From an uncultured bacterium (GTDB lineage Bacteria; Verrucomicrobiota; Kiritimatiellia; PWTM01): 64,000 nt of DNA. The stretch covers positions 335,835 through 399,834 of the forward strand of contig CAVUUJ010000001.1 of NCBI GenBank assembly GCA_963744655.1, given 5' to 3'. The notes under the pieces were generated by a model. It did no database searches, had not been told where the DNA came from, and saw only the letters and a program-made list of their open reading frames with translations. Below, piece after piece: positions 9,640 to 59,467 of this stretch (positions are counted from its first letter, which is position 1; every line of letters begins with the position of its first letter). Both the position numbers and the translations under genes were made by a program.

Positions 9640-9661
9640 CGGTCGAAGATCCTTCGCGCGC

Positions 9662-42883: not shown

Positions 42884-42886
42884 GGC

Positions 42887-43429
42887 TCAGCCCGCCTCCT
42901 GCCATTCGCCCGAGGCGATCATCTCCCGCTCGATGCACGCGCGCAGCCGGTCGCGCAGGCGGGACACGGCCTTGTGCACCGCGTCGAGCTTACGACCCAG
43001 CTGCACGGCCATCTCCCGCAGCTTCAGCGCCTGCCCGTAGCGCAGTTCCAGCAGGTGCCGCGAGCGCTCGGGCAGCTTGCGCAGGCAGGTTTGCAGCGCC
43101 GCGCGCAGCGCCTCGCCGTCGTCCTCCGTGCGGTCGTAGACCTCGAGCACCCGCTCGATGACGCCGGGGTCGAGCGGGGCGGGGGCGCGGCGGGTGCGGT
43201 CGAAATGGTGAAAGGCCTTGTGCACCGCGATCCCGCGGGCCCAGGCGCCGAAGGAGCGGGCCGGGTCGTACTGTTCGAACCGTCGCCACAGCACCAGCGC
43301 GGTTTCCTGGAACACGTCGTCGCAGGCGGTCCGGTCCCGCACCAGCGAACCGATGACCGCGCGGATGTCGTCCTGGTGCGTCAGGAAGTGCTTCAGGAAT
43401 TCCGCCTGCCGGTCTGCGCTCTCTCCCAC
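42887..43429 (-). CDS. ECF-type RNA polymerase sigma factor (PVC-type)
   Basis: Region 2 is DDVFQETALVLWRRF...F.AWARGIA and region 4 is LPERSRHLLELRYGQALKLREMAVQLGRKLDAVHKAVSRLR. A GTG start at 43429 is assumed. Confidence 0.8.
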   Translation of the reverse strand: MGESADRQAEFLKHFLTHQDDIRAVIGSLVRDRTACDDVFQETALVLWRRFEQYDPARSFGAWARGIAVHKAFHHFDRTRRAPAPLDPGVIERVLEVYDRTEDDGEALRAALQTCLRKLPERSRHLLELRYGQALKLREMAVQLGRKLDAVHKAVSRLRDRLRACIEREMIASGEWQEAG

Positions 43430-43574
43430 GATGCCGTCTCTCCGCGACTCCCGCTCCTCGCCTCTTCCCGCGGGGGGTCGATCTTGGACAACAGGATACG
43501 CTTCCCGCGCCGGTCCCGCACGGGCGGGGCGGCAACGAAGGGTCAACCCTCCGGCCCGGCCGCGTGGCGGGCGG

Positions 43575-45086
43575 TCAGTAGGCCTTGGCGAACAGTCCCC
43601 GCCGGCGGCTGGGGCGGCCGGAGAAGATGCACCGGCCCTCCTCCTCGGGCGCATCGAGCGGGACGCACCGGCAGGTGACCTTCAAGGCCTTGAGCTTCTC
43701 GTCCATCTCCGGTCCCTCGGCGAAGTGGCAGTACGCCAGCCCGCCGTGCAGCTCGTTGCCCTTCGGCGTGAAGAAGGCATCGAACTCCGCCGGCTCGTCG
43801 ATCCGCACGGTGCAGGCCTCGCGCAGCGCGAGGGCCCGCTGGAAGAGCCCGGCCTGGATATCGGCCAGTTCCGCCGCCACGGTCTCCACGAAACGGGCGC
43901 GGGGCACGCCGGCCTTCTCGCGCGGCCCGCGGTCTCTCCGGGCCGCGAAGACCGAGTCCGACGCGAGGTCGCGCGGGCCGATTTCGAGCCGGATGGGCAC
44001 CCCGCGCTTGACCTGGTACCAGCTGCGCTCGCCGCTGGTCAGGTCGCGGTCGTCGAGGCGCACGCGGACCGGTTCGCCCTCGTAGCGCTGCGCCTCCAGT
44101 TCCCGTTTCACGCGGTCGACGTACGCCAGGACCGCGGCGCGCTCCTCGTCGTTGCGGAAGATGGGGATGAGGACCACGTGCGCCGGCGCGAGGCGGGGCG
44201 GCAGCACGAGGCCGTCGTCGTCGCTGTGGCTCATGATCAGGCCGCCCACCAGGCGCGTCGACACGCCCCACGACGTCGTCCACGCGAATTCCTCGCGCCC
44301 CTCGCGGCTCTGGAACAGGATCCGCTGCGCGCGGGCGAAGTTCTGGCCCAGGAAGTGCGACGTGCCCGCCTGCAGGGCCTTGCGGTCCTGCATCAGCGCC
44401 TCGATGCAGTAGGTGTTCACCGCGCCCGGGAACCGCTCGCCGGCGGTCTTCTCGCCCCGGATCACGGGCATCGCCATCATCTCCTCGGCGAATGCGGCGT
44501 AGACGTCCAGCATGCGCCGCGTCTCCTCCATCGCCTCCCCGGCCGTCGCGTGGACGGTGTGCCCCTCCTGCCAGAGGAACTCGGCCGTGCGCAGGAACAG
44601 GCGCGTGCGCATCTCCCAGCGCACGACGTTGGCCCATTGGTTGAGCAGGATCGGCAGGTCGCGGTAGGACTGCACCCACCGCGCGTAGGTGGCGCCGATG
44701 ATGGTCTCGCTCGTGGGCCGCACGATCAGCGGCTCCTCGAGCGGCGAGGCCGGAACGAGGCCGCCGTCCGGACCGGGGACCAGCCGCGAGTGCGTTACGA
44801 CCGCGCACTCCTTGGCGAACCCCTCGACGTGCTCGGCCTCTTTCGCCAGGAAACTGATCGGGATGAAGAGCGGGAAGTAGGCGTTCTCGTGGCCGGTCTC
44901 CTTGAAGCGGCGGTCGAGGTCCCGCTGGATGTTCTCCCACACGGCGTAGCCCCAGGGCCGGATGACCATGCATCCGCGCACGTCGGAAGCCTCCGCGAGC
45001 TCGGCCGCCTTCACGACCTGCTGGTACCACTCCGGGTAGTCCTCGGCCCGTGTCGGGCTGATCGCGTGCCGCTCCTGCTTCGCCAT
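43575..45086 (-). CDS. proS: Prolyl-tRNA synthetase (archaeal/eukaryote-like type, no editing insertion)
   Basis: 503 aa with YPEWYQQVV..AEL, class II motifs (FRDE-like RWEMRTRLFLRTAEFLWQEGHT, GTSHFLGQNF) and the C-terminal zinc-binding-domain ending ...LFAKAY. Confidence 0.9.
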   Translation of the reverse strand: MAKQERHAISPTRAEDYPEWYQQVVKAAELAEASDVRGCMVIRPWGYAVWENIQRDLDRRFKETGHENAYFPLFIPISFLAKEAEHVEGFAKECAVVTHSRLVPGPDGGLVPASPLEEPLIVRPTSETIIGATYARWVQSYRDLPILLNQWANVVRWEMRTRLFLRTAEFLWQEGHTVHATAGEAMEETRRMLDVYAAFAEEMMAMPVIRGEKTAGERFPGAVNTYCIEALMQDRKALQAGTSHFLGQNFARAQRILFQSREGREEFAWTTSWGVSTRLVGGLIMSHSDDDGLVLPPRLAPAHVVLIPIFRNDEERAAVLAYVDRVKRELEAQRYEGEPVRVRLDDRDLTSGERSWYQVKRGVPIRLEIGPRDLASDSVFAARRDRGPREKAGVPRARFVETVAAELADIQAGLFQRALALREACTVRIDEPAEFDAFFTPKGNELHGGLAYCHFAEGPEMDEKLKALKVTCRCVPLDAPEEEGRCIFSGRPSRRRGLFAKAY

Positions 45087-45253: not shown

Positions 45254-46440
45254 TCAAGGGCTCACGACCGTGCCGCGGAACTGCTCGGCCCACTGCTTGG
45301 TGGCGGGATGGTCGAGCTGCCGCGGGGTGAAGTGCAGCTGGAGCCACTCCTCGAAGGAGAGGTCCGGGGACGGCACGAGGACCGGGTTGGGCTGCAGCCC
45401 CACGGGGTTGCCGAACGCCGTCGCCGGATCGCCCAGCAGGTTGTAGACGTTGGACATGAAGCCCATCTCGCCCACCCGGGCGTAGTAGTCGAGCGCCACG
45501 GTCACGGCGTCGCCGATGCGGGCCGTTCCGCGTTCAAAGATCTCGCGGAAGAGCTCCTGGTCGAGCAGCGCGTTCTGGCTGTTGAAGGAGAGCGACACCG
45601 GGGACCAGACGGCCACCGCGCCCCCCCCCGGCGAGGCGGCGAGGGCCTCGCTGAGCGAGGCGTAGCCCGGGATGCCGAAGCGGCCGATGATGCAGGTGAT
45701 CGCCACGACGAAGGGGGGACGGTCGCCGTTCTGAATGCCCGGGACGTCGGCGGTGGTCACGATGGCCTCGCTCGCCATGCGGTCCATGCCCGAGTGGCCC
45801 GTGTAGTTGAAGAGCCCGGCGCCGCTGCCGAAGGCCCCGAGCGCGCTGCCGCGCGTGGCGGGGAGGCCGAGCTGCGGCAGGTACGCCTTCTCCGTGGCGT
45901 AGCCGGGCGTGACCAGCGAGGCCAGGCCGTCGCTCGTCGCGGGGAAGTCGCCGCCGTCGTCCGGGTCGTCGGCCAGCATGAACACCTTCTGCTTCCACGC
46001 ACCGCCCGCCTCGTAGGACTGGATCTTGGCCAGCACGGCGCGCAGCTCGGCGGGGGTCATGACCGGGAGGCGGCCCAGCGCCACCTCGGGCACCGCGTCG
46101 CCGTCGATGTCGCACAGCGGCAGGTCGGAGGCGAAGAGACCCAGGGGGGTGGCGAGCATGCCGGGCGGCACGAGGTTCTCGTTGGAGCCGCGCAGGTTCC
46201 GGTAGTCGTAAGTGCCGGTGCCCGCCAGCACGACGTAGCGGGCCGGCACGTTCCACGCCCGGACGGCCCAGGTGATGAAATGGCGGATGGCTTCCGGGTC
46301 CGCCACGCCGTGGTTGAAGTGGTCGTAGAGCTCCTGCAGCTCGACGACGAGGGCGGAGAGCCCCTGGGTCCGGCGGTAGGCGGCGAGCTCTTCGGCGGCC
46401 TCGGTCAGCGACGCCGGCGCGATCACGACGTAGTCGAAGC
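45254..46440 (-). other. Peptidase C25-like catalytic region of the mega-protein
   Basis: It runs from FDYVVIAPASL...AAYRRTQG to the end. The candidate His is in LFNYTGHSG (codon 45794-45796) and the candidate Cys is in VVAITCIIGRF (codon 45692-45694), followed by NLLGDPATAF. Confidence 0.7.
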
Positions 46441-49400
46441 CGTTGGTGGCGGCGGGCAGCGCGGAGAGCGGGACGCCCTCGATCGACGCGGGCGCGAGGG
46501 CGGTCGCCAGGGTCTGCGCGAGGTACCGGCGGTCGCCCGCCGACGGGGCGAAGCTCAGGCTGAACGTCCCGCCCTCCCGCGCGGCCCGGCGTTGCAGGAC
46601 CTGCCGGGGCTCGCACGGGTCGGTGACGTCAAGCAGGCAGATGTCGGGGGTCGGGAAGCCGCGCACGGTAACGGACGCGTGGCCGGCCGCGTCGAACGCG
46701 AGCCGCCCCGCCTCCGCGACGTAGCGGCGCGGGTAGGCGATGTCGAAGCTGTCGACGTAGAAGTACGTGAAGGGCACGCCGGCGTCGAGGACGCCCGCCA
46801 CTTCCAGGGTGTTGGTCCCGTCGGCCAGCAGCGCGGGGCTGAAGGCGGCGGTGAGCACGGCGGGCTGCGCGCCGTTCCAGCTCACCTCGCCCACGGGGGT
46901 GCCGTTGACCCGCACGACGGCGTGCTGGTCGGGATTGGCCGTCGTGTCGGCCGCGCCCTGCAGGTACACGGTGACCTCCGCGTCGGAGCCGGCGGCACTC
47001 CGGCCGCGGGTCGTGAAGGCGAACCGCAGCGGGGCGCCCGGCGCGCTCGCCGTGACGTACTGGTAGCCCCAGAGCCACATGTCGTCGTCGGCGTCGTAGA
47101 ACAGCGAGTTGGCCGGGAACACGTCCTGCTCGTAGTGTGTGCGGTCGACGAACCAGGCGGTGCCGTCGTCGGGGACCGCGCGGCCGGCGCCCACGGTCGC
47201 CGCCTTGATGCCGCGGCCGGACTCGAGCCAGTAGACGTTCTCCGTCGTGAAGAGGCTCTCGATCGCCTCCCCGTGGAAGAAGAGGCCCGTGCCGCCGGTG
47301 TCGGCGATCCAGGGGATCTCGAAACCCTGGTGGGACAGCCGGAAGCCCTGCCGCGCGAGCATCCCCTGCACGTCCGGCGTCGCGAGACCCAGCGCGGCGG
47401 CCAGGTCGGCGGCGTCCACGCGGTGGAGGCCGCCGGCGGTGACGCGCAGGCGGACGCGGTAGGTCGGCACGGCGGGGTTGGCCGCCTCGGCGCGGAGCTC
47501 CGCCTCGGCGCGCGCCGCCGCCGTCGCGCTCGCCGTGCGGTCCAGCGTGGCGGGACGCGCCCGCTGCTCGAAGCGCGGCGCCGGGTCCGGCGCCGCGGGG
47601 GTGCGCGCGGCGCTCCGCGCGCGGCCGGCCGGGCGGGCGGTGGCCGGGACGGCGCCGGGGCCCCGCGGCGCGCCTTCGCCGTAGGGGCCGTAGTGGCGCG
47701 TGAGCCCGGAGGCCTCGACCTCGCGCAGCACGTAGCGGTAGGGCACGTCCCGGCGCGCCGAGGCGTCGACCAGCCGGTAGGTTCCGCCCTGCACCGAGGT
47801 GAGCATCGCGGGCAGGATGTCGGGGTGCACGGGCTCGTAGTCCGCGTCGCCGGGTCCGCGCCGCAGCACGTAGAAGCCGACGGTGCCGACCTCGGAGGCC
47901 GTCTCCCACTCGACGGCGAGCCCCTCGTCCGCGGGCGTCACCTCGAAGCGGGTCACGAGGACGAGCGTGGGGCGCTCGGACGTGTAGCAGAAGTCCGCCC
48001 CGTCCAGGTCCGCGTCCACCAGCGTGACGGGATAGGGGTTCACCTGGCCCTGGTCCACGGTGTCGGGGATCCCATAGGTGGGCCGCTTCATGGCGAGCAC
48101 GCCGGTGGTGTCGCTGACGGCCACGAGGTAGTGGCCCGGGGGCAGGGAGACGAAGGCGAAGTCGCCGCCCGCATCGGTCGTGGCCGTGCCGAACGAGGGG
48201 TCGCCGGCATCCCACACGCCGTTGCCCGCGAGGTCGCGGTAGAGCGTCACGGCCACGCCGGGCAGGGCCGGATCGAGCGCATCCCGGTCGCCCTGGCCGT
48301 CGAGGTCCTCCCACACGGTGCCGAGGATCGACAGGGGCGTGGCGGCCGCGGCATAGCCGAAGTCGGCCAGGAGGCTGTCGGGCGCGGCCCCGGTAAGGAC
48401 GAGCCCGTAGGGGTCGAGCTTGCTGAAACCGTCCGCGTTGGCGATGCCGAGGGTCTTGGTGAACCCGTCCAGGACGTGCCCCACGTCGGTGACGTGCACG
48501 AGGTAGCGCGCCGCCGGCAGGCCGCCGAAGAAGTACCCGCCCCGGGCGTCGGTGGTCTCCGAGGTGACGAGGTTGTCGGTGCCGGGCTCGAGCAGGCCGT
48601 TTTCGTCGACGTCCTGCCAGAGTTCCAGGGTCACGCCCTGCAGGCCCGGCTCGCCGGGGGCGCGGAACCCGTCGGCGTCGCGGTCGTGGAATACGAGGTC
48701 GCCCAGCAGGCCCGCCTCGCCGCGGTAGCCGAAATCGAGGTCGGCCCGGTGCTCGCCCGCCGCCAGGGAAACGACGGCGGAGGGATTCGTGCCGGCCGTG
48801 AGGTGGAGGCCGCCGAGCACGGCGCCCGTGTCGGTGACGGTCACGCGGTAGCCGCCGGCCGCGAGGCCCCGGAAGCGGTAGGCGCCGAGGGGACCGGTCG
48901 TGACGACGGCCGCGGCGTCGCCCTGCGCGTTGAGCAGCGCGAGCGAGACGCCGGGGATCCCGTCCTCGCCGGCATCGACCGCGCCGTCGCCGTCGGTGTC
49001 GGCCCATACGAGGTCGCCGATGCGGCCCATGCCGGGCGCGTGGAAGCCGAAGTCGAGGTTCGCGCGGCTGTCGTTCGCCGGGTCGGCGTCGTCGAGGAAG
49101 GTGATGCCGCCGCTGGTGAGGCCGCCCGCGCTCTGCGGTCCGACGGTGGCGGTGCAGCCCTCGAGGGGGCCGCCCGCGCCGAAGTTGGACGCAGCGACCA
49201 CGACGTGATAGGTCCCCGTACCGAGCCCGGTGAAGCGGTAGAGGCCCGCCGCGCCGGTCGTGGTCGTGGCGACCGCCGTGCCGTTCGAGACCAGGTCGAG
49301 GACCACCCCGCCGCGGCCCGCTTCGTCCGGGTCCTGGATGCCGTCCTCGTCCGCGTCGGCCCACACGAAGTCGCCGACCGCGTACCCCGTGCCGCGGTAG

Positions 49401-52400
49401 CCGAAATCGGCCTCGCGGTACGCCTCGCCGCCGCTGAGCGGGATGGCGCCGGTCACGTCGCCGCCCGTCGTGGACGCCATCCCCTCGAGGACGCCGCCGG
49501 CGGCGAAGTTGGCCGGGGCCGTCCCGGCGAAGTACACCCCGGCCGACAGGCCGGCGAAGACGTAGCTGCCGTCGGGAAGGACGACGGTGGCGGCGGCCTG
49601 CGCGTCGGCGCCGGCGTCGTACTGGCCGTTTCCGTTCGTGTCCCCGTACAGGTTCACCACGGTGCCGGGCAGGCCCCGCTCGTTGGCGTCGCGCACGCCG
49701 TCGCCGTTCGTGTCGTACCAGGCGGTGTCGCCGATCGACGCCGTCCGCCCGTCGCGCACGTAGCCGAAGTCGATGCCGCCGACGTCGGCGCCCGCGACGG
49801 TGACGGGGCGGGTGCTGAGCCCGGTCGTGATGCGGTACCCGTCGAGGACCCCGTGGCGGTCGGTGACCTTCACCGCGAAGCTGCCGTCCGGCACGCCGCG
49901 GAAGGCGTAGGACCCGTCGGCCGCCGAGGCGGTCTCGGCCACGGTCGCGCCGCCGGCGTCGACGAGGGCGAGGGTGACGCCGGGGATCGGCGGCTCGCCC
50001 GCGCCGCCGTCGGCGCCGTCGGTGTCGAGGTCGTTCCACACCGAGCCGGAGACGTCGTGCAGGGACGCGTTCCGGAAGCCGAAGTCGGCCTCCATGTCGC
50101 TGGAGAGAACGGTGGGAACCGCCGCGTTCTGCTGGAGGCCCGCGGCGCCGGCGCCGGCCTGCTCGTCGGCCACGGTGGCGGCGTAGCCGGCCAGGGCGGC
50201 CTGGCCCGCGTCGAGGCTGACGAAATACGTGCCGGGTGCCATGCCCTCGAAGACGTAAAGGCCGGCGGCGTCGGTGACGTGGGTGGCGACCGCGGTGTCG
50301 GCGGACGCCTCGAACACGCCGTTGCTGTCCGCGTCGCGCCACAGCACGACGGCGACGCCGCCGAGACCCGGCTCGCCCGGGCTCCGCAGCCCGTCGCCGT
50401 CGGCGTCGCTCCACACCGTGTCGCCCACGGCGCCCGCGCGGACGTAACCGAAGCGGGTGCCGGAGACATCGGCTCCGGCGACGGCCGCGGGGGCCCGGCG
50501 GGCGGCGGCCGGGGCCGTGGTGGGGGTAGTGGCGGCCAGTTTCCCGGCGGTGTCGGAAACGGCCAGGCTGTAGTCGCCGTCGGGCAGGCCGTGGAACGAG
50601 AAGGTGCCGTCCGCGGCGCTGGCGGCGGTGGCGATCACCGTCCCGCCCGCGTCGAGCAGGTTGACGGTCAAGCCGCCGATGCCGGGCTCGCCCGGGTCGG
50701 CCGTGCCGTCGCCGTCGGCGTCGTACCAGGCGCGGTCGGTGATGCCGTGCAGCGACGCGTTGCGGTAGCCGAAGTCGGCGTTGAGGTAGACGTCGCCCGG
50801 CGCGGCGGTGAAGGGCGCGGACGGGTCGCTGCCGCCGGTGAGCGCGTACGCGGCCAGGACCGCGTCGGTGTCGGTGACGGCCACGGTGTACTCGCCGGGC
50901 GCGACATCCGCGAAGTGGTACGTGCCGTCCGCGGCCGTGGTGGTCGCGGCGACGGCCGCGCCGCTGGAGACCAGCGCGAGGGTGACGCCCCCGAGGCCCG
51001 GCTCGCCGGGGTCGCGGACGCCGTCGCCGTCGGCGTCGCTCCAGACGAGGTCGCCGATCCAGGCGGCGCCGGTGTCCGGAGGCGTGAAGCCGAAGTCGGC
51101 GTCCGCGAACCGCTCGCCCAGGGCCAGGACCACGGCCAGGGGGTCCTGCGTGCCCGGCGCGGCGGCCAGGCCGGCGGGGAGCGTGCCGCCCAGCACGTCC
51201 ACGGTGAACGCGCCCGCGGGCAGGCCGGCGAAGAGATACGTGCCGCCCGCCCCGGTCACGTTCGTGGCCAGGGGCGCGAGGTGCTCATCGTGGAGGACGA
51301 CCGCGACATTCGGCAGGCCCGGCTCGCCCGGGTCGAGGAGGCCGTCGCCGTCGACGTCGAACCAGACCGTGTCGCCGACACTGGCCGTCTCGCGGTCGGT
51401 GTCGAGGAAGTCGTTTCCGGCGTAGGCGGTGAGCACGGTGACCCGGACGGGAATCCGGTTGTCGTTGGGGCCGGCCGTGTCCGCCACGCTGGTGTAGCCG
51501 GCGGGGTCCGTCTCCACGACGACGTACGGCCCGTCGCCCAGGTGTAGGAACTCGTACGTCCCGTCGGCGCCGGTCGCCTGGAGGCGCAGGAGCGCGCCGT
51601 CGGCGGGGTCGCCGTCGCCGTTGGGGTCGCTGAAGAGGGCGACGCCGACGCCGGCGAGCGGGGTGTCGCCGCCGAAGCCCGGGTTGGCGCGGTCCTCGCA
51701 GACCCGACCGGAAACGGAGGCGGCCAGCGTGACGAGGCCGGCGGTGTCCGCCGCGGGCGGCACGGGGTCGCCGTGGACGTCGAGGGCGTAGTCGACCGCC
51801 GCGCGGTTGGACGCGGGGTCGCCGCCGCCGACGACGCGGAACGTGACGTCGACCGTTGCGGCCGCGCCGGGCTCGAGCTGGCCGGCGCCCGTCAGGTCGA
51901 GCCAGAGCAGGCTGCCCGAGCCCTGGCCGTCGGGCTCCGGCGTGGCGCTCACGAACTCGAAGCCACTCGCACTGAAGGTGTCCTCGAGCGGAAGCTCCGC
52001 CACGGCCGTGCTGCCGGTGTTGGTGACGGCGACGCGGAACAGCACCAGCTCGCCGAAGGAGGCCGGGCCGGGGGTGAGGACGGTCTTGGCGACCACCAGG
52101 GCCGGCTGCGTGACGGCGACGGCCGCGGTGTTTGTCGAGACGGCGGCTCCGGCCGTCGCGACGGCGCGGTTCGTCGCGGCCGGCGAGGGGCCGGCGGCGG
52201 TGAAGTCGACGACGACGTTCGTCGCGGCGCCGGGGGCGAGGGGGCCGACGTTGTTCCAGGCGAGGGTGCCGGCCCCGGCGGCGTCGGGCGGCGGCACGGC
52301 GGTGTCGAAGGCGAGCGCGGCGGCGGGGTAGGTGTCGGTCACCTGCACGGTGCCCTGCGTCGTGCTGCCGGTATTCACCACCCGGAGCAGGAAGCGGACG

Positions 52401-55400
52401 GCGTCGCCGGCGACCGCCTGCCCGTCGGCGGGAGCGAGCAGCGACTTGCTGACGGAGATGCCGGGCACGCCGGGTGCGGCGGGCACCGTCGCGGTGTCGC
52501 CGGACGTGTCCGTCGGGTCGTCGGGGTCGGTGTAGGACACGGCGAGGGCCGTGGACGCGGGGGCGTGGAGCACCCCGTCGCCGGGCGACCCGGCGACGGT
52601 CGAGCTGGCGGGGAGGCTGTTGGTGAAGACGCCCGTGTCGACCCCCGTCTCGGCGAGGGTGAGGGTCTCGGTGTCGCCCGTGCCCGTCGTGAGGGTGACC
52701 TGCACCGTGTCGATCGCGAGGGGATCGGTGTCCTGGTCCAGGTCGGTCGTGCGCACGCAGACGGTCTCGTTCGTGGCATAGACGGCCGTGTGCGGCCCGT
52801 TCGGCCCGGTGGTGAACTCGGTCGTGCTCGGGGTGCCCAGGTCGAGCGGGCTCAGCGCGACCGGCGTGGAGCGCGAATCGGTCACGTCGCCCTCGTAGCC
52901 CTCGTGGGCGGTGACGCTGACGGTGTAGTTGCCCTCGACCGCGCCCGTGTGCCAGGCGTACTCGTACGTCTTCGAGCACGCGTCGGCCGCCACGACGCCC
53001 GCGTCGTCCAGCGCGAGCGAGAGGTCGCCGCCGATGCCCGGTCCGTCGGCGGAGAGGTCCAGCCCGGTGATGTCGGAGGCGCCGAAGGGGTCGCTCACCG
53101 TGGCGCGGACGAAGACGGTCTGCCCGTTGGCCGCCGCGGTCAACGGGGCGCCGCCGGGAAAGGCCGCGTCGTAGAGGGCGAGGTCGACGACGCGGATGAC
53201 CGTCGTGGTGGGCAGGACGACCCGGGAGGGATGGGCGAGGCTGTCGTACAGCACCCGGAACGCGCCCCCGCCTTCGTCGCTGGCCACTTCGAGCTGCACG
53301 GCCGATCCCGCGGGGAAATGGGTCGAGACGGGCACGACCCCGCTCCACGCGAGGGTGCCCGCGCCGCTGTCGTAGACGGCGTTGGTGAGGGTCAGGGCGT
53401 AGCCGCCCTCCACGCCGACGCGCGCGGTCACGCTCGGGTGGGCGGGCAGGGCGCCGCTCGTGACCTCGACGTGGGCCACCACCTCGACGAGGCCGCCGGC
53501 GGGGAGGGCGAGCGGCTCGCAGAGCGCGGGCGCCAGGGTGAAGACCGTGCTCGCGCCGCCCGTCGCGGGCGCCGGCCGGACCGGGACGCCGAGGAGCGCC
53601 CACGCGTCGTAGTTGCACGTCCAGGAGATCGTCGCGCCGGACCCGCCAGGCGTCGTGCTGCCGCCCGAGCGGATGCCGTCGCTGTTCGCCACCTCCGAGT
53701 AGCCGTTCCAGAGCACGGTGCTGCCGGCGCCCGGCGTGGCGCTGCGCGAGTCGTCGAGCGCGAAGACGCCGAAGACCAGGTCGCCGTCGTCGGAAGACAC
53801 CGCGAGACTCGCGCTCGTGCCGGAGCCCTTGGTGGTCGCGGGCGTGCCGAGCGGCGAGGAGAGGTCGACGCCGGTGAACGTCGTGACCGCCGCGAACACC
53901 GAGTCGTCGTCGTTGGCGCGGCCGTCCGAGAGGGAAACGACCACGGTGCCGGCGCCGCTCGCCGGGGAGGTGAGCCGCCAGATCTCGCCCTCGGCCTCCT
54001 GGTTCGAAGCGCGCCGGCGGACCCGGGTCAGGCCCTGGGTGGACGTGCCCACGACGTAGTCGACCGCGCTGACGTCGAGACTGGCGGTGCCGTCGTCCTC
54101 GATCCCGATGCCGACGAGCATCAGCCGGTTGGCGCCGGCGGCGGTGACGTGGTCCACGGAGAGGGAGGTGAGCGCCGAGGAACCCTCGGCCACGCTGCCG
54201 GTGGAGACGTTGGACACGGCAAGGGCCGAGGCGGTGCGGAGGACGGCCCCGGTGGACGTGGTCGTGTCGCCCGTGGCCACGGGGTCCACGCGGTCGAGGA
54301 TGTTGCCCGGGCCCGCGTCGCCCAGGTACAGGGGCTTGAACTCGCTGGGGGCGGCCACCACCGCGGTGTCGCTGCAGGTGTCGCCGTACAGCGGATCGGT
54401 GTAGCGGGCGACGAGCCCGTCGCCCGCCAGGGCGTGCAGCGTGCCGTCGCCGGGCGCCAGCCCGAGCGTGGTGGAGGAGGCCAGGGGCGAGCCGCTGGCG
54501 AACACGTGCGTGTCGGGCCCCGTCTCGGCCAGGAGGACGGTTTCCACGTCGCCGGTCACCAGGTCCGTCACGATGACCTCCACGGTTTCGATGGCGAGGG
54601 CATCCGTGCCGGCGTCGATGTCCGAGAGGCGGAGGTAGACGGGAGCGTTGGCGCTGTAGACCCCGACCGGGACGCCGGCCGCGTCGGTGAAGTCCACCAC
54701 GCACGGGTGCGACCCGGCCGGGGGCGGGACGACGATATCGTGGGTGTCGCCCACGCCGGGCAGGGAGGACTGGGCGGTATTGGTGATGTCGCCGCCCGCG
54801 AGGATGACGGTGCGGTAGCGCACCGTGGTCGACTGGCCGCGCAGCAGCAGCGGGATCAGGATGCCTTCCTCGTCGAGGGGGAACGCCGAGGCGGGCGCGG
54901 CGTCGTCGCCGATCGGTACGCCGTCCCGCACCGTGCTGTCGGCGACGTAGGCCAGTTGCGGGGGCAGGCCGTCGAGCACCAGCAGGTTGCCGAGGGCGAC
55001 CAGGCTGCTGTTGTCGAGGGTGATCCGGTACTCGAGCGTATCGCCGATGCTGAGGCCCGGCAGGCCCGAGTCGACGGCGATCGAGCAGTCCTTGACGAAC
55101 ACGGGGACGGGGAACGCGGGCACGGTGGTCCCCATGTCGAGATACGGGTTGCCCGGGCCGGCGACCGCGGGATCCTGGCCCCAGGCGGCGGTGATCAGCG
55201 TGCCGTCGAGCGTGTAGACCCGGAGGCCGGTCTGGTCCCTGTCGCCGTCGTAGAGGCGCCGGATTTCGAGGGCGGCGACGTCGAAATGCTCGTCGTACTC
55301 CTCGCCGGCGGGGTCGGTGAGGGGGCCGCTCCGGTCGCCGTCGTAGTCGACGTAGATGCGGGTGGCGTCCGTCGCCGTGACCCACACGGGGCTTCCGTTG

Positions 55401-56623
55401 CGCGACAGGTCGCTGCTTCCGGGACCCCAGCCCACCACGGCCAGGGTGGTCAGGTTCTGAACGGGCACGAGGCTGTAGCCCCAGTCGTGCACGTTGTTCG
55501 CCGAGGGTTCCGCGCCCACGGCGCCGACGGCGAAGAACGGCTCGCCGCCGTCGGAGCGGAAACGGGCCGCGGAACTCTGCGGCATGAGGAAACGGTAGGT
55601 GTCGCGGGGCGGCACGTCGAAGGAACCGGAGCCGGTGCGCGTGGTGTAGTGGATGGTCACGGGCTGCGCGGCGGCGTTGTGGAGGAGGATGTAGGTGTCG
55701 TCGCCGTCCGCCGCCGTGCCCACGGGCGCGTAGTAGTCCCCGCTCCACTGGTCGGCGGGCGCGAGCGTGAACCAGCGCGACTCGTAGTTCGCGCCGATGT
55801 CGCCCGTGAGGAGGTGGACCTGCACCGGCTTGGACGCCTGCACGGTCGCGCCCTTGAGGATGCCGCCGTTCACCATGTGGGACTCGCCAGGGCCGAGCGT
55901 GACCGCGACGTCCGCCGAGCCGTCGGCGTCGGTGTCGATCTGCACCGCCGTTTCGTCCTCGGCGGCCATGACCAGGAGCCAGACGCGCTCGAACATCGAG
56001 GCGTAGGCGGGGGAGGGGAAGACCACGTCCTGCCCCACGGGCGCGACGTAGGACACGCCCCAGTCGAGCGTCGCGGTGACCTCCACCGCGTCGGCCAGCA
56101 CGCTGCCCGGCTGGACGGCCCACGCGGCGCGGGACATGACGATGCCCTTGGTGGCGCCGACGCGGTCGCGGGCGTCGTACAGGACGGTGGAGGGGTTGCG
56201 CGGAAGCGTGACGAGGTTGCGCAGCGCGATCACGTCGCCCGCGTTGAGAGCCGCGGGATCGCTGGCGAACCCGGGCGGCTTGCCGTTCGCGTCGATGCCG
56301 TCGCCCCACACCTGCGTCGAGGCCTGGGCCGGATGGTCGAGGTCGATTTCGTAGCCGTCTTCCCAGTGGTCGTACACGACGCGCGTGCCGTTGACGCCCA
56401 TGACCATCGAGACGACCGAGTCGATCGTGGTGCCGGTGTTGCCGGCCAGGACCAGGAAGGCCTGGCGGACCTGCTGTTCCGGCACCGGGACGTAGTACGA
56501 CTGCACGACGCTCTGTGCCGGGGCGGAGGGAACCGCCGCGGCCAAGAGACAAGCCGCGGCGGCCGCGACGGTCCATCGTGCGCCCGGACGCGAAACAAGG
56601 GGGTGCATGGCTCTCGTCTTCAT
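45254..56623 (-). CDS. 3,789-aa secreted multi-repeat surface protein with a C-terminal gingipain-like (C25) cysteine peptidase domain
   Basis: ATG 56623 is preceded by GAGGAA and the Sec signal is MKTRAMHPLVSRPGARWTVAAAAACLLAAAVPSAPA|QS. It contains DUF11-type modules, 11 SdrD-B-like modules, and a C-terminal NYTGHSG / AITCIIG / LLGDP region. The frame is unbroken for 11.4 kb. The 190 codons upstream in the track ORF overlap the fur gene out of frame and are not coding. Confidence 0.85.
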   Translation of the reverse strand: MKTRAMHPLVSRPGARWTVAAAAACLLAAAVPSAPAQSVVQSYYVPVPEQQVRQAFLVLAGNTGTTIDSVVSMVMGVNGTRVVYDHWEDGYEIDLDHPAQASTQVWGDGIDANGKPPGFASDPAALNAGDVIALRNLVTLPRNPSTVLYDARDRVGATKGIVMSRAAWAVQPGSVLADAVEVTATLDWGVSYVAPVGQDVVFPSPAYASMFERVWLLVMAAEDETAVQIDTDADGSADVAVTLGPGESHMVNGGILKGATVQASKPVQVHLLTGDIGANYESRWFTLAPADQWSGDYYAPVGTAADGDDTYILLHNAAAQPVTIHYTTRTGSGSFDVPPRDTYRFLMPQSSAARFRSDGGEPFFAVGAVGAEPSANNVHDWGYSLVPVQNLTTLAVVGWGPGSSDLSRNGSPVWVTATDATRIYVDYDGDRSGPLTDPAGEEYDEHFDVAALEIRRLYDGDRDQTGLRVYTLDGTLITAAWGQDPAVAGPGNPYLDMGTTVPAFPVPVFVKDCSIAVDSGLPGLSIGDTLEYRITLDNSSLVALGNLLVLDGLPPQLAYVADSTVRDGVPIGDDAAPASAFPLDEEGILIPLLLRGQSTTVRYRTVILAGGDITNTAQSSLPGVGDTHDIVVPPPAGSHPCVVDFTDAAGVPVGVYSANAPVYLRLSDIDAGTDALAIETVEVIVTDLVTGDVETVLLAETGPDTHVFASGSPLASSTTLGLAPGDGTLHALAGDGLVARYTDPLYGDTCSDTAVVAAPSEFKPLYLGDAGPGNILDRVDPVATGDTTTSTGAVLRTASALAVSNVSTGSVAEGSSALTSLSVDHVTAAGANRLMLVGIGIEDDGTASLDVSAVDYVVGTSTQGLTRVRRRASNQEAEGEIWRLTSPASGAGTVVVSLSDGRANDDDSVFAAVTTFTGVDLSSPLGTPATTKGSGTSASLAVSSDDGDLVFGVFALDDSRSATPGAGSTVLWNGYSEVANSDGIRSGGSTTPGGSGATISWTCNYDAWALLGVPVRPAPATGGASTVFTLAPALCEPLALPAGGLVEVVAHVEVTSGALPAHPSVTARVGVEGGYALTLTNAVYDSGAGTLAWSGVVPVSTHFPAGSAVQLEVASDEGGGAFRVLYDSLAHPSRVVLPTTTVIRVVDLALYDAAFPGGAPLTAAANGQTVFVRATVSDPFGASDITGLDLSADGPGIGGDLSLALDDAGVVAADACSKTYEYAWHTGAVEGNYTVSVTAHEGYEGDVTDSRSTPVALSPLDLGTPSTTEFTTGPNGPHTAVYATNETVCVRTTDLDQDTDPLAIDTVQVTLTTGTGDTETLTLAETGVDTGVFTNSLPASSTVAGSPGDGVLHAPASTALAVSYTDPDDPTDTSGDTATVPAAPGVPGISVSKSLLAPADGQAVAGDAVRFLLRVVNTGSTTQGTVQVTDTYPAAALAFDTAVPPPDAAGAGTLAWNNVGPLAPGAATNVVVDFTAAGPSPAATNRAVATAGAAVSTNTAAVAVTQPALVVAKTVLTPGPASFGELVLFRVAVTNTGSTAVAELPLEDTFSASGFEFVSATPEPDGQGSGSLLWLDLTGAGQLEPGAAATVDVTFRVVGGGDPASNRAAVDYALDVHGDPVPPAADTAGLVTLAASVSGRVCEDRANPGFGGDTPLAGVGVALFSDPNGDGDPADGALLRLQATGADGTYEFLHLGDGPYVVVETDPAGYTSVADTAGPNDNRIPVRVTVLTAYAGNDFLDTDRETASVGDTVWFDVDGDGLLDPGEPGLPNVAVVLHDEHLAPLATNVTGAGGTYLFAGLPAGAFTVDVLGGTLPAGLAAAPGTQDPLAVVLALGERFADADFGFTPPDTGAAWIGDLVWSDADGDGVRDPGEPGLGGVTLALVSSGAAVAATTTAADGTYHFADVAPGEYTVAVTDTDAVLAAYALTGGSDPSAPFTAAPGDVYLNADFGYRNASLHGITDRAWYDADGDGTADPGEPGIGGLTVNLLDAGGTVIATAASAADGTFSFHGLPDGDYSLAVSDTAGKLAATTPTTAPAAARRAPAAVAGADVSGTRFGYVRAGAVGDTVWSDADGDGLRSPGEPGLGGVAVVLWRDADSNGVFEASADTAVATHVTDAAGLYVFEGMAPGTYFVSLDAGQAALAGYAATVADEQAGAGAAGLQQNAAVPTVLSSDMEADFGFRNASLHDVSGSVWNDLDTDGADGGAGEPPIPGVTLALVDAGGATVAETASAADGSYAFRGVPDGSFAVKVTDRHGVLDGYRITTGLSTRPVTVAGADVGGIDFGYVRDGRTASIGDTAWYDTNGDGVRDANERGLPGTVVNLYGDTNGNGQYDAGADAQAAATVVLPDGSYVFAGLSAGVYFAGTAPANFAAGGVLEGMASTTGGDVTGAIPLSGGEAYREADFGYRGTGYAVGDFVWADADEDGIQDPDEAGRGGVVLDLVSNGTAVATTTTGAAGLYRFTGLGTGTYHVVVAASNFGAGGPLEGCTATVGPQSAGGLTSGGITFLDDADPANDSRANLDFGFHAPGMGRIGDLVWADTDGDGAVDAGEDGIPGVSLALLNAQGDAAAVVTTGPLGAYRFRGLAAGGYRVTVTDTGAVLGGLHLTAGTNPSAVVSLAAGEHRADLDFGYRGEAGLLGDLVFHDRDADGFRAPGEPGLQGVTLELWQDVDENGLLEPGTDNLVTSETTDARGGYFFGGLPAARYLVHVTDVGHVLDGFTKTLGIANADGFSKLDPYGLVLTGAAPDSLLADFGYAAAATPLSILGTVWEDLDGQGDRDALDPALPGVAVTLYRDLAGNGVWDAGDPSFGTATTDAGGDFAFVSLPPGHYLVAVSDTTGVLAMKRPTYGIPDTVDQGQVNPYPVTLVDADLDGADFCYTSERPTLVLVTRFEVTPADEGLAVEWETASEVGTVGFYVLRRGPGDADYEPVHPDILPAMLTSVQGGTYRLVDASARRDVPYRYVLREVEASGLTRHYGPYGEGAPRGPGAVPATARPAGRARSAARTPAAPDPAPRFEQRARPATLDRTASATAAARAEAELRAEAANPAVPTYRVRLRVTAGGLHRVDAADLAAALGLATPDVQGMLARQGFRLSHQGFEIPWIADTGGTGLFFHGEAIESLFTTENVYWLESGRGIKAATVGAGRAVPDDGTAWFVDRTHYEQDVFPANSLFYDADDDMWLWGYQYVTASAPGAPLRFAFTTRGRSAAGSDAEVTVYLQGAADTTANPDQHAVVRVNGTPVGEVSWNGAQPAVLTAAFSPALLADGTNTLEVAGVLDAGVPFTYFYVDSFDIAYPRRYVAEAGRLAFDAAGHASVTVRGFPTPDICLLDVTDPCEPRQVLQRRAAREGGTFSLSFAPSAGDRRYLAQTLATALAPASIEGVPLSALPAATNGFDYVVIAPASLTEAAEELAAYRRTQGLSALVVELQELYDHFNHGVADPEAIRHFITWAVRAWNVPARYVVLAGTGTYDYRNLRGSNENLVPPGMLATPLGLFASDLPLCDIDGDAVPEVALGRLPVMTPAELRAVLAKIQSYEAGGAWKQKVFMLADDPDDGGDFPATSDGLASLVTPGYATEKAYLPQLGLPATRGSALGAFGSGAGLFNYTGHSGMDRMASEAIVTTADVPGIQNGDRPPFVVAITCIIGRFGIPGYASLSEALAASPGGGAVAVWSPVSLSFNSQNALLDQELFREIFERGTARIGDAVTVALDYYARVGEMGFMSNVYNLLGDPATAFGNPVGLQPNPVLVPSPDLSFEEWLQLHFTPRQLDHPATKQWAEQFRGTVVSP
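47985..51709 (-). repeat. Eleven tandem SdrD-B/Cna-B-like coding modules (protein-level repeats, diverged at DNA level)
   Basis: Each module opens with a (V/I)GDxVWxDxDGDG-type motif. Starts, read by hand, lie near 51709, 51378, 51058, 50745, 50428, 50056, 49737, 49380, 49024, 48710 and 48330, a period of 313-380 nt. Confidence 0.7.
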
Positions 56624-57087
56624 CTCGTTTCCTCGTGGATCGCGCCGTCCCCGGCGCGCGTCGCTGACCTGGGGCGGCATGCCCGGCAAAGGCCGATGTG
56701 GAGCTCTTCCCTGCGGACGCCCTCTTCGGGGCGGTCCGCGGGGATCGGGACGGCGGTCTGCGCGGTCGCTGCCCCCTCGGGCCGGTTCTCCACGCGCTCG
56801 CACGCGCTGCAGATGAAGTGCGCGTGGGGCGCGGTGACCGCGTCGTAGCGGCTGCGGCCGCTCAGGGTGGGAACCCGGCGGATGGCGCCCGCCCGCTCCA
56901 GCGCCGCCAGGGTGCGGTAGACGGTGTCGAGCGAGATGCCCGGGATCCGGCCGCTCACCGTCCCGAACAGCGACTCGGCGTCGGGATGCCCCTTCGCGGC
57001 GGCCAGCGCCGCGAGCACGGCAATGCGCTGCGGCGTGGCGCGAAGATGCACCTGGTCCCTCAGAACGGCGGTGGCGTAGGACTGCAT
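56620..57087 (-). CDS. Fur-family metalloregulator (Zur-like by context)
   Basis: 155 aa with a winged-helix N-terminus (LRATPQRIAVLAAL...DTVYRTLAALERAG) and HAHFICSACERV plus GLCRAC (two CxxC pairs). Its TGA overlaps the ATG of the mega-protein gene (ATGA at 56620-56623). Confidence 0.85.
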   Translation of the reverse strand: MQSYATAVLRDQVHLRATPQRIAVLAALAAAKGHPDAESLFGTVSGRIPGISLDTVYRTLAALERAGAIRRVPTLSGRSRYDAVTAPHAHFICSACERVENRPEGAATAQTAVPIPADRPEEGVRREELHIGLCRACRPRSATRAGDGAIHEETR

Positions 57088-57149: not shown

Positions 57150-57400
57150 AGGTCTTCACCGCCCCGCCCGACGGCGCGCGAAGCAGTCGGCAAGACAGGC
57201 GCCGCACAGGAGCGGCCTGCGGGTAAGGGGAGGGGTGCAAGGCATAAGCCGTTCTACAGAAACCATCTACGATGGCGAAGGCAGAAACAGCCGCCAGGGC
57301 GTGCGCAAGGTGGTTAATTCGCACAAATGAGAGCCGTGTTCGCGCTGGTCAGTCCGTGTACACCCGGTGGACAAATCCGGCACCGGGACCGGAGAAGACT

Positions 57401-57429
57401 TTGCATGCGGTATTACTTCGTACTATCTT
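57401..57429 (+). promoter_or_regulatory. Sigma-70-type promoter candidate for the RHH-znuACB operon
   Basis: TTGCAT-17 nt-TATCTT (an overlapping TACTAT is also present), about 35 nt upstream of ATG 57465. Confidence 0.35.
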
Positions 57430-57464
57430 GTGGCCTGACGGTGGAGGCGCGAAGGGAGGGCAGC

Positions 57465-57803
57465 ATGACGAAGTCGGGGACCGAGGTCATTACGTTCAAG
57501 GCGGACCGGGAGCTGTCGCGTGCGATGCGAGGCATCCCGAACCGGTCGGCATTCATTCGTACGGCGATCCTGGGCGCGCTCGACAGCGCGTGCCCGCTGT
57601 GCCGCGGTACCGGGGTGCTCACGCCGTCACAGAAAGGGCACTGGGACGCCTTTGCGGCCACGCACGCGATGGAGGAGTGCGGCGACTGCCACGCCGTGCA
57701 CCTGGTCTGCGAAGCCGGAGGGCCGTCCGGCGCCGTACATCCGTCTGCCGCGGCGCGCGGGGAAGCGGCGCCGCGAACGGCCGCGCGGGGGGACGGGGCA
57801 TGA
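57465..57803 (+). CDS. Ribbon-helix-helix (CopG-like) protein with a Cys/His-rich C-terminal domain; putative metal-responsive regulator
   Basis: GAAGGGAGGG lies upstream of the ATG. VITFKADRELSRAMRGIPNRSAFIRTAILGAL is an RHH pattern, followed by CPLCRGTG (CxxCxGxG) ... H ... H ... CGDCH..H..C. The stop overlaps the znuA start (ATGA at 57800-57803). Confidence 0.65.
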   Translation: MTKSGTEVITFKADRELSRAMRGIPNRSAFIRTAILGALDSACPLCRGTGVLTPSQKGHWDAFAATHAMEECGDCHAVHLVCEAGGPSGAVHPSAAARGEAAPRTAARGDGA

Positions 57804-58660
57804 GCCGGTCGCTCGGCAGGCGCATATTGTGTGCCGCGTCGCTCGCCGCCGCGGCTTGCGGGGCGGGCACGGCGGGCGCGGCGGACGAACCGCTGGGCGT
57901 GGCGGTGAGCATCGCGCCGCAGCGCTGGCTGGTCGAACGGATCGGCGGGCCGCGCGTGGCCGTCACGGTACTGGTGCCGGCGGGTGCCGATCCGCACGTG
58001 TTCGAACCGACCGCGCGGCAGATGACCGCGCTGGCTCACGCCCGGCTCCTTTTCGCCGTGGGGATGCCGTTCGAGCCGGCCCTCGTGCCGCGCCTCCGGG
58101 CCGTCAACCCGCGCCTGCGGGTCGTGGACGTGCGCGGCGAGCGGCAGCGGGAGAGCGACGGACACGGGGGCGGCGAGGACCCCCACACCTGGCTGGACGT
58201 GCGCCAGGCCATGGGCCACGCGCGCGTGATGGCGGCCGCGCTCGCCGCGGAGGACCCCGGGGGACGCGCCGCGTACGAGGCCGGCCTGAACGGACTGCTG
58301 CGCGAGCTCGCCGCGCTGGACGACCGACTCCACGCGACGCTGGCGGCCGTGAAGGGCCGTTCGTTCCTGGTGCTGCACCCGGCGTGGGGCCACTTCGCCG
58401 GGGCCTACGGGCTCGTGCAGCGCGCCGTCGAGCAGGAGGGCAAGCCGCCCTCGGCGCGGCAGCTCGCGCGGCTGGTCGACGGGGCGCGCGCCGAGGGCGT
58501 GCGGGCGGTGTTCGTCGAGCCGCAGTTCAGCCCGCGCGCGGCGCGCGCGCTCGCCAACGAGATCGGCGCGGACGTGGTCGTGATCGATCCGCTTTCCGCC
58601 GACTACGCCGCCAACCTGGAGCGCGTGGCGCGAACCCTCGCGGAATGGCTGGCGCCGTGA
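57800..58660 (+). CDS. znuA: Periplasmic metal-binding protein, ZnuA/TroA family (cluster 9 SBP)
   Basis: It has a signal peptide, ADPHVFEPT, a short His/acidic loop ESDGHGGGEDPHTWLD, and HPAWGHF. It is followed by the ABC ATPase and permease genes. Confidence 0.8.
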   Translation: MSRSLGRRILCAASLAAAACGAGTAGAADEPLGVAVSIAPQRWLVERIGGPRVAVTVLVPAGADPHVFEPTARQMTALAHARLLFAVGMPFEPALVPRLRAVNPRLRVVDVRGERQRESDGHGGGEDPHTWLDVRQAMGHARVMAAALAAEDPGGRAAYEAGLNGLLRELAALDDRLHATLAAVKGRSFLVLHPAWGHFAGAYGLVQRAVEQEGKPPSARQLARLVDGARAEGVRAVFVEPQFSPRAARALANEIGADVVVIDPLSADYAANLERVARTLAEWLAP

Positions 58661-59466
58661 AGGGGACGCCCGAGCGGCCCGCGGTGATCGAAGTGCGCGA
58701 CGTGTGCTTCGGCTACGGCGCGGACGAGACGCTGCACAACGTCGGTTTCAAGGTCCGGGCACGCGACATGGTCGCGGTGGTGGGGCCGAACGGCGGCGGC
58801 AAGACGACGCTGCTGCGGCTGCTGCTCGGCCTGCTCGCCCCGCGGTGGGGGACGGTGCGCGTGCTGGGCGGGGATCCCCGGCGGGCGAGCCGCCGCATCG
58901 GCTACGTGCCGCAGCGGCTGGAGTGCGACCCGCGGTTCCCGGTGACGGTGTCCGACGTGGTGTCGATGGGCCGCGTGGAAGCCCACCGCTTCGGGCCGTA
59001 CCGCGCCGCCGACCGCGGGGCCGTCGAGCGCGCGCTTGCACAGGTGGGCATGGAAGGCCTCGCGCGCCGGCCGTTTGCGCGGCTCTCCGGGGGCGAGCGG
59101 CAGCGCGTGCTGATCGCCCAGGCCCTCGTGTCGGACCCGGCGGTCCTGCTGCTCGACGAGCCCACGGCCAATGTCGATCCGGCGGCAGAGCACCGGCTCT
59201 TCGAGCTGTTCCGCGCGCTCAACGAACGGCTGACGCTCATGCTCGTCTCGCACAACGTCAACGTCGTGACCCGGCACGTGAGCCACGTGCTGTGCGTGAA
59301 CCGCACGGCGGAGATGCATCCGATCGAGGCCTTGCTCTCGTCCGAGTTCCGCGAGTCCTACGGCGGGGAGATGGCCGTCATCCTCCACGACGTGCAGTGC
59401 CACGTCGTGGACCGCTCGCGCGTGCTGGCGACCGGCCACCGCGGGGAAGCCGGGGAGGGCCGCTGA
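58657..59466 (+). CDS. znuC: Metal ABC transporter ATP-binding protein
   Basis: The GTG start overlaps the znuA stop (GTGA). Walker A is GPNGGGKTT, the signature is LSGGERQRVLIAQAL, and Walker B is LLLDEP. Confidence 0.85.
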   Translation: MKGTPERPAVIEVRDVCFGYGADETLHNVGFKVRARDMVAVVGPNGGGKTTLLRLLLGLLAPRWGTVRVLGGDPRRASRRIGYVPQRLECDPRFPVTVSDVVSMGRVEAHRFGPYRAADRGAVERALAQVGMEGLARRPFARLSGGERQRVLIAQALVSDPAVLLLDEPTANVDPAAEHRLFELFRALNERLTLMLVSHNVNVVTRHVSHVLCVNRTAEMHPIEALLSSEFRESYGGEMAVILHDVQCHVVDRSRVLATGHRGEAGEGR

Positions 59467-59467
59467 G

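Follow-up and report, generated by a model that had tools for sequence, protein, structure and literature searches.

The described systems closest to the protein analysed here are PorU, which works in the attachment complex of the Bacteroidota type IX secretion system (T9SS), and the gingipains RgpB and Kgp; characterised gingipains are endopeptidases. Sediment C25 genes with signal peptides are routinely read as encoding Arg-specific, gingipain-like degraders. We analysed a stretch of 64,000 nucleotides (nt) from an uncultured bacterium (contig CAVUUJ010000001.1), called the window below, in which one minus-strand gene encodes a protein of 3,789 amino acids (aa) that ends in a peptidase of family C25. 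Judged from its sequence and predicted structure, this is almost certainly a giant planctomycete protein, exported by the Sec route and located extracellularly or at the surface, with an IgGFc-binding-like head, a beta-sandwich stalk and a conserved C25 unit of ~900 aa carrying an intact catalytic dyad. It adds a new and very large protein to an uncharacterised C25/PorU-type variant; the C25 domain family itself is already known, and we found no description in the literature of the subfamily or of its accessory operon.

A C-terminal C25 peptidase was first proposed in a sequence-only reading of this DNA, made by a model from the letters and their open reading frames (ORFs), and the assignment is borne out by a full-length Pfam match. 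Peptidase_C25 (PF01364) is matched over profile positions 1-372 of 374 with 250.7 bits against a cut-off of 23 (E = 3.7e-74), and the catalytic domain occupies residues 3398-3735 (45419..46432, on the minus strand, as are all parts of the giant gene given below), ending in a GDPA motif. The dyad context recognised in that reading also holds: NYTGH3610 aligns with NYTGH211 of RgpB and AITC3644 with DVAC244, which puts the catalytic His3610 (nt 45794-45796) and Cys3644 (nt 45692-45694) in the columns of RgpB His211 and Cys244, and the profile alignment spans the entire RgpB catalytic domain and ends at a common GDP motif. Of 163 aligned cassettes from homologues, 161 retain the His, 162 the Cys and 160 the GDP motif; this near-invariance indicates an enzyme under selection and speaks for its being active. 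The catalytic Cys is the only conserved Cys of the C-terminal unit.

The predicted structure agrees with this assignment. The AlphaFold model of the last 739 residues has a predicted local distance difference test score (pLDDT) of 88.7 and a predicted template-modelling score (pTM) of 0.86, and its top Foldseek match is PorU (6za2; E = 1.4e-29, ~800 aligned columns, 801 in number). RgpB (1cvr) comes second (E = 5.5e-18, 365 columns), the predicted model fitting it with a target-normalised template-modelling (TM) score of 0.67 and a root-mean-square deviation of 3.2 A, and Kgp follows. PorU is also the best match in a PDB profile search (E = 2.5e-32) and among NCBIfam models, where NF033707 scores 218.4 bits against a cut-off of 420 and the PorU2 model 136.4 against 450. 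Residues 3124-3737 cover positions 106-732 of the 1,095 of NF033707, and positions 733-1095 are unmatched. In both sequence and predicted fold, PorU is thus the nearest neighbour of the last ~735 residues, and the gingipains come next. Of the label 'gingipain-type' given in the sequence-only reading, the C25 domain with its gingipain-like fold stands, whereas PorU is the closer relative by both sequence profile and fold, pre-catalytic beta domains included.

Comparison with these two systems shows what the window protein shares and what it does not. With PorU it has in common the pre-catalytic beta domains, the C25 domain, the His/Cys dyad, an 'ADxxD' segment and the terminal GDP motif. The pre-catalytic domains (residues 3056-3397, 46433..47458), a small alpha/beta domain followed by beta-sandwiches, have no match in Pfam. 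In contrast to PorU, the window protein scores below the family cut-off, lacks the C-terminal third of PorU and its retained T9SS C-terminal domain (CTD), and carries its C25 unit fused behind a passenger of ~2,850 aa. PorU belongs to Bacteroidota, whereas the host here is a planctomycete, the neighbour genes scanned in the window gave no T9SS-related Pfam match, and the relatives found are in phyla other than Bacteroidota. The gingipains RgpB and Kgp (PDB 1cvr, 4ief and 4rbm) have the same C25 fold (target-normalised TM 0.6-0.68), an aligned dyad and a catalytic domain ending at the same GDP motif, but the window protein lacks their N-terminal prodomain, Ig-like domain, haemagglutinin domains and CTD; Propeptide_C25 (PF08126) gave no match in a whole-protein Pfam scan at E <= 0.01 or in segment scans. 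The order of domains is reversed relative to gingipains, sequence identity is 16-20%, and the column of the S1 residue Asp163, in a loop of unreliable alignment, does not appear to be conserved. Since the prodomain, the Ig-like domain, the C-terminal third of PorU and the T9SS CTD are all missing, the C-terminal region is, on sequence and model, a C25 peptidase sharing the PorU pre-catalytic domains that is neither a PorU nor a gingipain. A T9SS cargo was considered as well and rejected, given the missing CTD and the planctomycete host.

The giant ORF is a real gene. The complete coding sequence (45254..56623) runs as a single uninterrupted ORF from an ATG at 56623 to a stop at 45254-45256. 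GC at third codon positions (GC3) is 0.91-0.98 in all 200-codon blocks of this frame; it falls to ~0.6 upstream of 56623, where the high-GC3 frame shifts to a separate 155-aa gene. A longer, TTG-started ORF reaching 57193 was rejected, as the coding signal ends at 56623. An identical 3,789-aa protein with the same start, unnamed, has already been called in public data on a contig of 597,768 bp, and it is a singleton in clustering at 90% identity. The even codon bias and this identical call uphold the earlier view that the ORF is genuine and unbroken. Repeats within the gene are only 60-81% identical at the DNA level over at most 120 nt, which makes a repeat collapse in the assembly unlikely. 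The window has a GC content of ~74%, at which long spurious ORFs are expected, and the giant gene is indeed overlapped by shadow ORFs that are 2,079 and 1,763 aa long. Those in the range of 1,700-2,100 aa lie at 45308-51547 (+), 51285-56576 (-) and 51773-56848 (+); their GC3 of 0.55-0.70 marks them as by-products of high GC and not genes.

The conserved C-terminal unit begins upstream of the peptidase with a beta-sandwich (residues 2885-2985, 47669..47971), followed by a basic Ala/Arg/Pro linker (residues 2986-3055, 47459..47668) that contains the motif FEQRAR at residues 3018-3023 (nt 47555-47572). The sandwich had been described as an Fn3-like module; it is predicted with confidence to be all-beta (block-mean pLDDT 73-92), but Pfam gives it no match. 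The linker, present as described earlier, is predicted to be disordered. The model of residues 2885-3789 has a pLDDT of 84.1, and in it the linker is of low confidence except for the motif strand (pLDDT ~79) and the helix after it. Beyond the GDPA motif lies a 54-aa tail (residues 3736-3789, 45257..45418; ..SFEEWLQLHFTPRQL..), which is a short form of the tail of relatives. In Verrucomicrobiota and Lentisphaerota relatives (L013, L016, L023, L025, L030 and L047), ~155 aa with the motif W..F..ADPDGDG(V/L)(P/E)NLMEYAMGWNP follow GDPA, and the window protein and one homologue, P0017, retain the first part only (..EEWLQLHFTPRQL..). No Pfam or NCBIfam family, sorting-signal families included, matches the tail, and by hydrophobicity no segment of the whole chain, tail included, is suited to membrane anchoring. 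Profile scans and hydrophobicity thus agree with the earlier statement that a T9SS CTD, an LPXTG motif and a PEP-CTERM tail are all absent.

Towards the N-terminus, export is supported by a signal peptide and by an all-beta passenger of adhesin-type domains. The Sec-type signal peptide (residues 1-36, MKTRAMHPLVSRPGARWTVAAAAACLLAAAVPSAPA|QS; 56516..56623) was read by eye: it has a basic n-region, an Ala/Leu core and APA|QS, and in homologues with the same head the mature chain begins at the same 'AQS..Q(T/S)Y(F/Y)VP' motif. The head (residues 38-505, 55109..56512) matches the Pfam family IgGFc_binding (PF17517) at 30.4 bits against a cut-off of 25.6. It is found at full length and N-terminally in 18 of 166 cassette homologues (for example P0025, E = 2.6e-121), and a PDB sequence search with it returned no credible relative. 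A first DUF11 module (residues 507-640, 54704..55105) and the first of two ~120-aa modules of an unnamed type (residues 640-760, LAETGPDTHVF...YTDP; 54344..54706) follow. The second copy (residues 1265-1385, 52469..52831) was recognised, like the first, by their pairwise match (50% identity, E = 3e-25); tandem copies of this module occur in seven homologues, and Pfam has no match for it (residues 641-760). The two copies flank a region of ~420 aa with no assigned family (residues 761-1178, 53090..54343), for which Pfam gave no match at E <= 1, a PDB sequence search no credible relative and the homologues one weak relative only, and then a divergent twelfth SdrD_B-like beta-sandwich, likewise without a Pfam match (residues 1179-1270, 52814..53089; E = 1e-13 against the repeat profile). 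DUF11/DUF7507 modules 2 and 3 (residues 1387-1634, 51722..52465) lead into the stalk, 11 tandem SdrD_B (CnaB-type) modules at residues 1635-2887 (47963..51721), which Pfam matches in 11 stretches (E = 9e-151) and whose boundaries were taken from the repeat profile. The first DUF11 module rests on Pfam and NCBIfam profile matches and the other two on Pfam. Tandem SdrD B-type (CnaB-like) stalk modules are shared with staphylococcal adhesins of the SdrD type, one of the microbial surface components recognizing adhesive matrix molecules (MSCRAMMs); the window protein lacks the Sdr A domain, the Ser-Asp repeats and LPXTG, and NF012181 scores 316 against a cut-off of 2500.

Much of this anatomy had been outlined in the sequence-only reading. 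Its Sec signal, its three DUF11 modules and its two modules with a shared motif are all present, the last at ~120 aa each where ~110 had been given. Its eleven consecutive SdrD_B modules are likewise found, although the divergent twelfth was unlisted. It had called the N-terminus unplaceable, which the above-threshold match of residues 38-505 contradicts, and its list of parts missed the ~420 aa between the two ~120-aa modules.

That reading also implied that a passenger followed by a C-terminal C25 peptidase was unique, whereas this layout proves to be the norm for a family that numbers thousands of clusters. Searched exhaustively, the last 739 residues matched 15,070 representative clusters at E <= 1e-3, of which 5,258 remained at E <= 1e-30, and the best 150 homologues all had E < 1e-136. 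In 124 of these 150, the cassette ends at most 10 residues from the C-terminus; the passenger before it ranges from 3 to 5,531 residues and exceeds 1,000 in 59 of them. In 146 of 166 homologues the cassette is immediately preceded by the same beta-sandwich, which was found only within C25 genes. The family linker is ~74 aa long, with 17.5% Lys+Arg against 6.5% in whole proteins, and has a conserved motif, [YF]x[RK]x[AP][HR], of which FEQRAR is the form in the window protein. SdrD_B, DUF11 and C25 occur together in 11 of 15 homologues of 2,850-4,100 aa. P0025, for example, with 3,795 aa, has the same head, DUF11, SdrD_B and the C-terminal C25 unit. The window protein itself follows the subfamily layout, with the unit behind a passenger and the 54-aa tail after it. 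Database entries name the relatives 'C25 family cysteine peptidase'; such uncharacterised proteins (P0025, P0093, P0017 and MEM7584200.1) have the same C-terminal unit at 36-46% identity, and several of them share the head. Like the sequence-only reading, we found no characterised protein with a passenger-then-C25 layout.

A scan of species-representative genomes contained 263 relatives. The 79 loci that were retrieved (L003-L081) come nearly all from metagenome-assembled genomes (MAGs), none of them from Bacteroidota, and the taxa carrying the family are Planctomycetota, Verrucomicrobiota, Lentisphaerota, Kiritimatiellia, Desulfobacterota, Acidobacteriota (including Aminicenantes), Nitrospirota, Chloroflexota and Gammaproteobacteria, which match habitats of the anoxic-sediment type. 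One of the loci, L009, is that of Desulfosudis oleivorans. Stand-alone cassettes without a passenger also exist, which indicates that the cassette has a function of its own. One of them, P0005 from the cultured acidobacterium Mesoterricola sediminis (WP_243346622.1), has 730 aa, a lipoprotein-type signal (LTLAC, then a Gly run) and neither sandwich nor passenger.

In most uncharacterised relatives the C25 gene is followed by genes for PqqD-like, radical SAM, HprK-like and SipW-like proteins, and the window is without them. A radical SAM/SPASM and/or HprK-like (ScmC-like) gene stands beside the C25 gene in 53 of 68 informative homologous loci (78%), joined by a SipW/archaeal-type signal peptidase I in 32 loci. 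An ORF of ~95 aa for a PqqD-like protein is present in 50 loci and starts -3 to +60 nt from the C25 stop in ~30, often overlapping it. The gene for the C25 unit is the first gene of the accessory set in most relatives (for example L011 7161-10134, L029 7158-10162 and L023 7623-10638), and in Acidobacteriota the set is convergent. None of the accessory proteins reaches a curated NCBIfam cut-off. Searches of the literature for an association of C25 with radical SAM, for the SynChlorMet cassette and for an accessory operon with C25 found nothing. When PqqD, radical SAM/SPASM, HprK-like and SipW-like profiles were run against six-frame ORFs of the 64-kb window, nothing was obtained at E <= 1. The linker motif varies with the set: of 22 loci with the His type 21 have it, and of 18 with the Arg/Lys type 10 (Fisher p = 0.0055, kinship ignored). 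The window protein has the Arg type. One MAG with multiple copies has one copy with the accessory set and one without (L023 and L025).

How the unit works can be argued in several ways. The reading we favour, at a probability of roughly 0.45, is that of an active extracellular endopeptidase carried by a stalk that binds, the basic linker being a segment for latency or autocleavage. The peptidase would act outside the cytoplasm as an endopeptidase; head and stalk may attach to particles, polymers or cells, which would let the enzyme act on captured protein; and the linker before the cassette might serve latency or autocleavage, as in other clan CD zymogens. We prefer it because it fits the gingipains, the stand-alone forms and the sediment literature, in which C25 genes with signal peptides account for >40% of the exported peptidases predicted for anoxic estuarine sediment and track the hydrolysis of arginine aminomethylcoumarin (Arg-AMC) (PMC6752024, PMC6469976). 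The linker is a candidate processing site because of its 17.5% Lys+Arg and its conserved motif. Several points weigh against this reading. The profile alignment puts Pro3561 in the column of RgpB S1 Asp163, which gives no ground for assuming Arg or Lys specificity; further acidic residues, among them Asp3559, are near, in a loop whose alignment is unreliable. The closest characterised relative, PorU, is a C-terminal signal peptidase and transpeptidase and is not degradative, and a literature search yielded no characterised member of this C25 subfamily. Neither a strict C-terminal position behind a conserved sandwich and linker nor operon coupling to PqqD, radical SAM, HprK-like and SipW-like genes in 78% of informative loci is expected of a degradative enzyme, and a protein of 400 kDa would have to be carried across the outer membrane. 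The affinity to PorU, the rigid position and the operon coupling fit the rival explanations better than an endopeptidase. Chief among these, though unlikely, is a self-anchoring adhesin, in which the unit would act in cis like PorU, cut the linker and transfer the C-terminus of the passenger to an amine of a surface glycan or lipid, as a built-in sortase that leaves the head displayed on its stalk. PorU, best by NCBIfam, PDB sequence and fold with its pre-catalytic domains covered, does combine signal peptidase and transpeptidase activities (PMC11285876, PMC4560394); the unit is C-terminal in 124 of the 150 top homologues regardless of passenger and is preceded by the conserved sandwich, linker and motif; the topology of head, stalk and anchoring end resembles that of LPXTG- and T9SS-anchored adhesins; and Bac_transf sugar-transferase genes lie just upstream in ~10 homologous loci. 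The idea is nevertheless purely inferential: the PorU score of 218 bits stays below 420, the PorU C-terminal third and CTD are absent, an acceptor-delivering partner equivalent to PorZ or PorV is not known, a cassette that stands alone has no passenger to anchor in cis, and differences in DSSP assignments between two models hint that the linker motif would pair with a strand of the beta-sandwich and not lie in the catalytic cleft.

Somewhat less probable still is a pure autoprocessing or release domain whose sole substrate would be its own polypeptide, the cut releasing passenger or peptidase after export. The models for this are clan CD domains of the multifunctional-autoprocessing repeats-in-toxin (MARTX) and large clostridial toxins, which likewise place a caspase-like cysteine peptidase inside a giant exported protein, with cis-cleavage possible; those autoprocessing domains belong to family C80, are internal, lie beside effector domains and are activated by host cofactors, whereas the window peptidase is a C25 enzyme and C-terminal. 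Clan CD domains of large bacterial surface proteins have been proposed as autoproteolytic processing domains (PMC3482391), and a basic, conserved, predicted-disordered linker and a constant position of the unit would suit such a role. The same work finds processing domains in such proteins to be usually internal and not terminal (PMC3482391), and a cis protease that turns over only once would not readily account for the stand-alone forms or for ~340 aa of PorU-like accessory domains. We also considered it improbable that the unit is substrate or scaffold of the peptide-modification pathway represented by PqqD, radical SAM/SPASM, the HprK-like kinase and the SipW-like peptidase, the window copy being a paralogue that is either served in trans or no longer dependent on that pathway. 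The accessory set in 53 of 68 loci, the ~30 loci in which the PqqD-like ORF adjoins the C25 stop, the skew of His-type against Arg/Lys-type motifs, the Arg type of a window protein with no set in the window and the MAG with both kinds of copy are all consistent with it; the accessory genes are nevertheless all absent from the 64 kb, the motif association ignores phylogeny, no modified residue is known, and the catalytic Cys is the sole conserved Cys of the unit. An account that joins these elements has an equally low likelihood: sandwich, linker and PorU-like C25 unit would form a self-contained, T9SS-independent sorting or anchoring module, widespread outside Bacteroidota, that cuts its own linker and attaches the passenger, like a sortase fused to its substrate, the linker motif in most lineages being matured by the dedicated operon of PqqD, radical SAM/SPASM, HprK-like kinase and SipW-like peptidase. 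By far the least credible is that the ORF is chimeric or misassembled, the peptidase an inactive pseudo-enzyme, or the protein a polymorphic toxin tipped with a peptidase. A high-GC MAG commonly yields long spurious ORFs, the 2,079- and 1,763-aa shadow ORFs do overlap the gene, and C-terminal clan CD domains can be toxin tips (PMC3482391). An assembly chimera is rejected because independent proteins on other contigs share the head and the C-terminal unit (P0025 also DUF11 and SdrD_B) and because codon bias is uniform along the ORF; in addition, the internal repeats have diverged and the dyad is essentially invariant. A constant C-terminus behind a variable N-terminus is the opposite of polymorphic toxins, a candidate that was rejected on this ground and because the downstream gene encodes ProRS and not an immunity protein.

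The neighbourhood of the gene offers some clues to its regulation and host. A gene for a Fur/PerR-family regulator of 155 aa (56620..57087, minus strand), identical to a protein called in public data, precedes the giant gene; its TGA stop overlaps the giant-gene ATG (ATGA), and GAGGA lies 8 nt upstream of that start. This arrangement suggests that the two genes are co-transcribed. An operon for a metal (Mn/Zn-type) ABC transporter, with an MntC/ZnuA-like binding protein, ATPase and permease (57272-60316, plus strand), is divergent from the regulator, with a gap of ~180 bp to the regulator start. Control of the giant gene by metal or redox state is possible. Downstream of the giant gene lie genes for ProRS and an ECF sigma factor, and no promoter-like or terminator-like sites were found between the giant gene and ProRS. 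The adjoining ProRS is 75-78% identical to sequences from Pirellulales/Planctomycetia, by which the host is a planctomycete; this accords with the earlier guess of a host from the Planctomycetes-Verrucomicrobia-Chlamydiae group. LptE is encoded in the window and indicates a diderm envelope. The neighbour genes scanned in the window gave no Pfam match related to secretion systems or to the T9SS, and the window holds no Rfam families or tRNAs.

Some further observations concern genes outside the giant protein. Among the homologous loci, a Bac_transf (polyprenyl-phosphate sugar transferase) gene is directly upstream in ~10 from Desulfobacterota or Acidobacteriota (L008, L009, L012, L014, L049, L055, L069, L070, L074 and L080), a position that hints at a link with surface polysaccharide synthesis. 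In the window, 6630-14115 and 17630-19465 (minus strand) encode an HypE-like AIR-synthase-related protein, HypD, HypF and a NuoF-like flavoprotein subunit; given these hydrogenase maturation genes and the NuoF-like subunit, the organism probably has a [NiFe]-hydrogenase. Three ORFs with coding-like GC3 have no Pfam match: 41249-42886 (-), 21620-23215 (+) and 32694-35100 (-). The first directly follows the gene for the ECF sigma factor (42887-43681) and could encode its anti-sigma partner.

Among exported peptidases in anoxic sediments, those encoded by C25 genes with a signal peptide are reported to be the most abundant (PMC6752024), and the window protein shows the form that many sediment C25 genes have, that of PorU-like enzymes at the C-terminus of adhesin-type giants. 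Its relatives also bring to light an accessory peptide-modification set, operon-coupled in most of them, for which we found no paper and no curated NCBIfam model. If the window protein is simply a tethered protease, it only adds another to the large secreted hydrolases. Should the unit serve for processing or anchoring, it would represent a new mechanism of surface display in diderm bacteria, and inferences on carbon cycling from counts of C25 genes would need revision. If it is a sorting module, the 'gingipain-like' genes that abound in anoxic sediments would for the most part encode machinery for surface display and not protein degraders.

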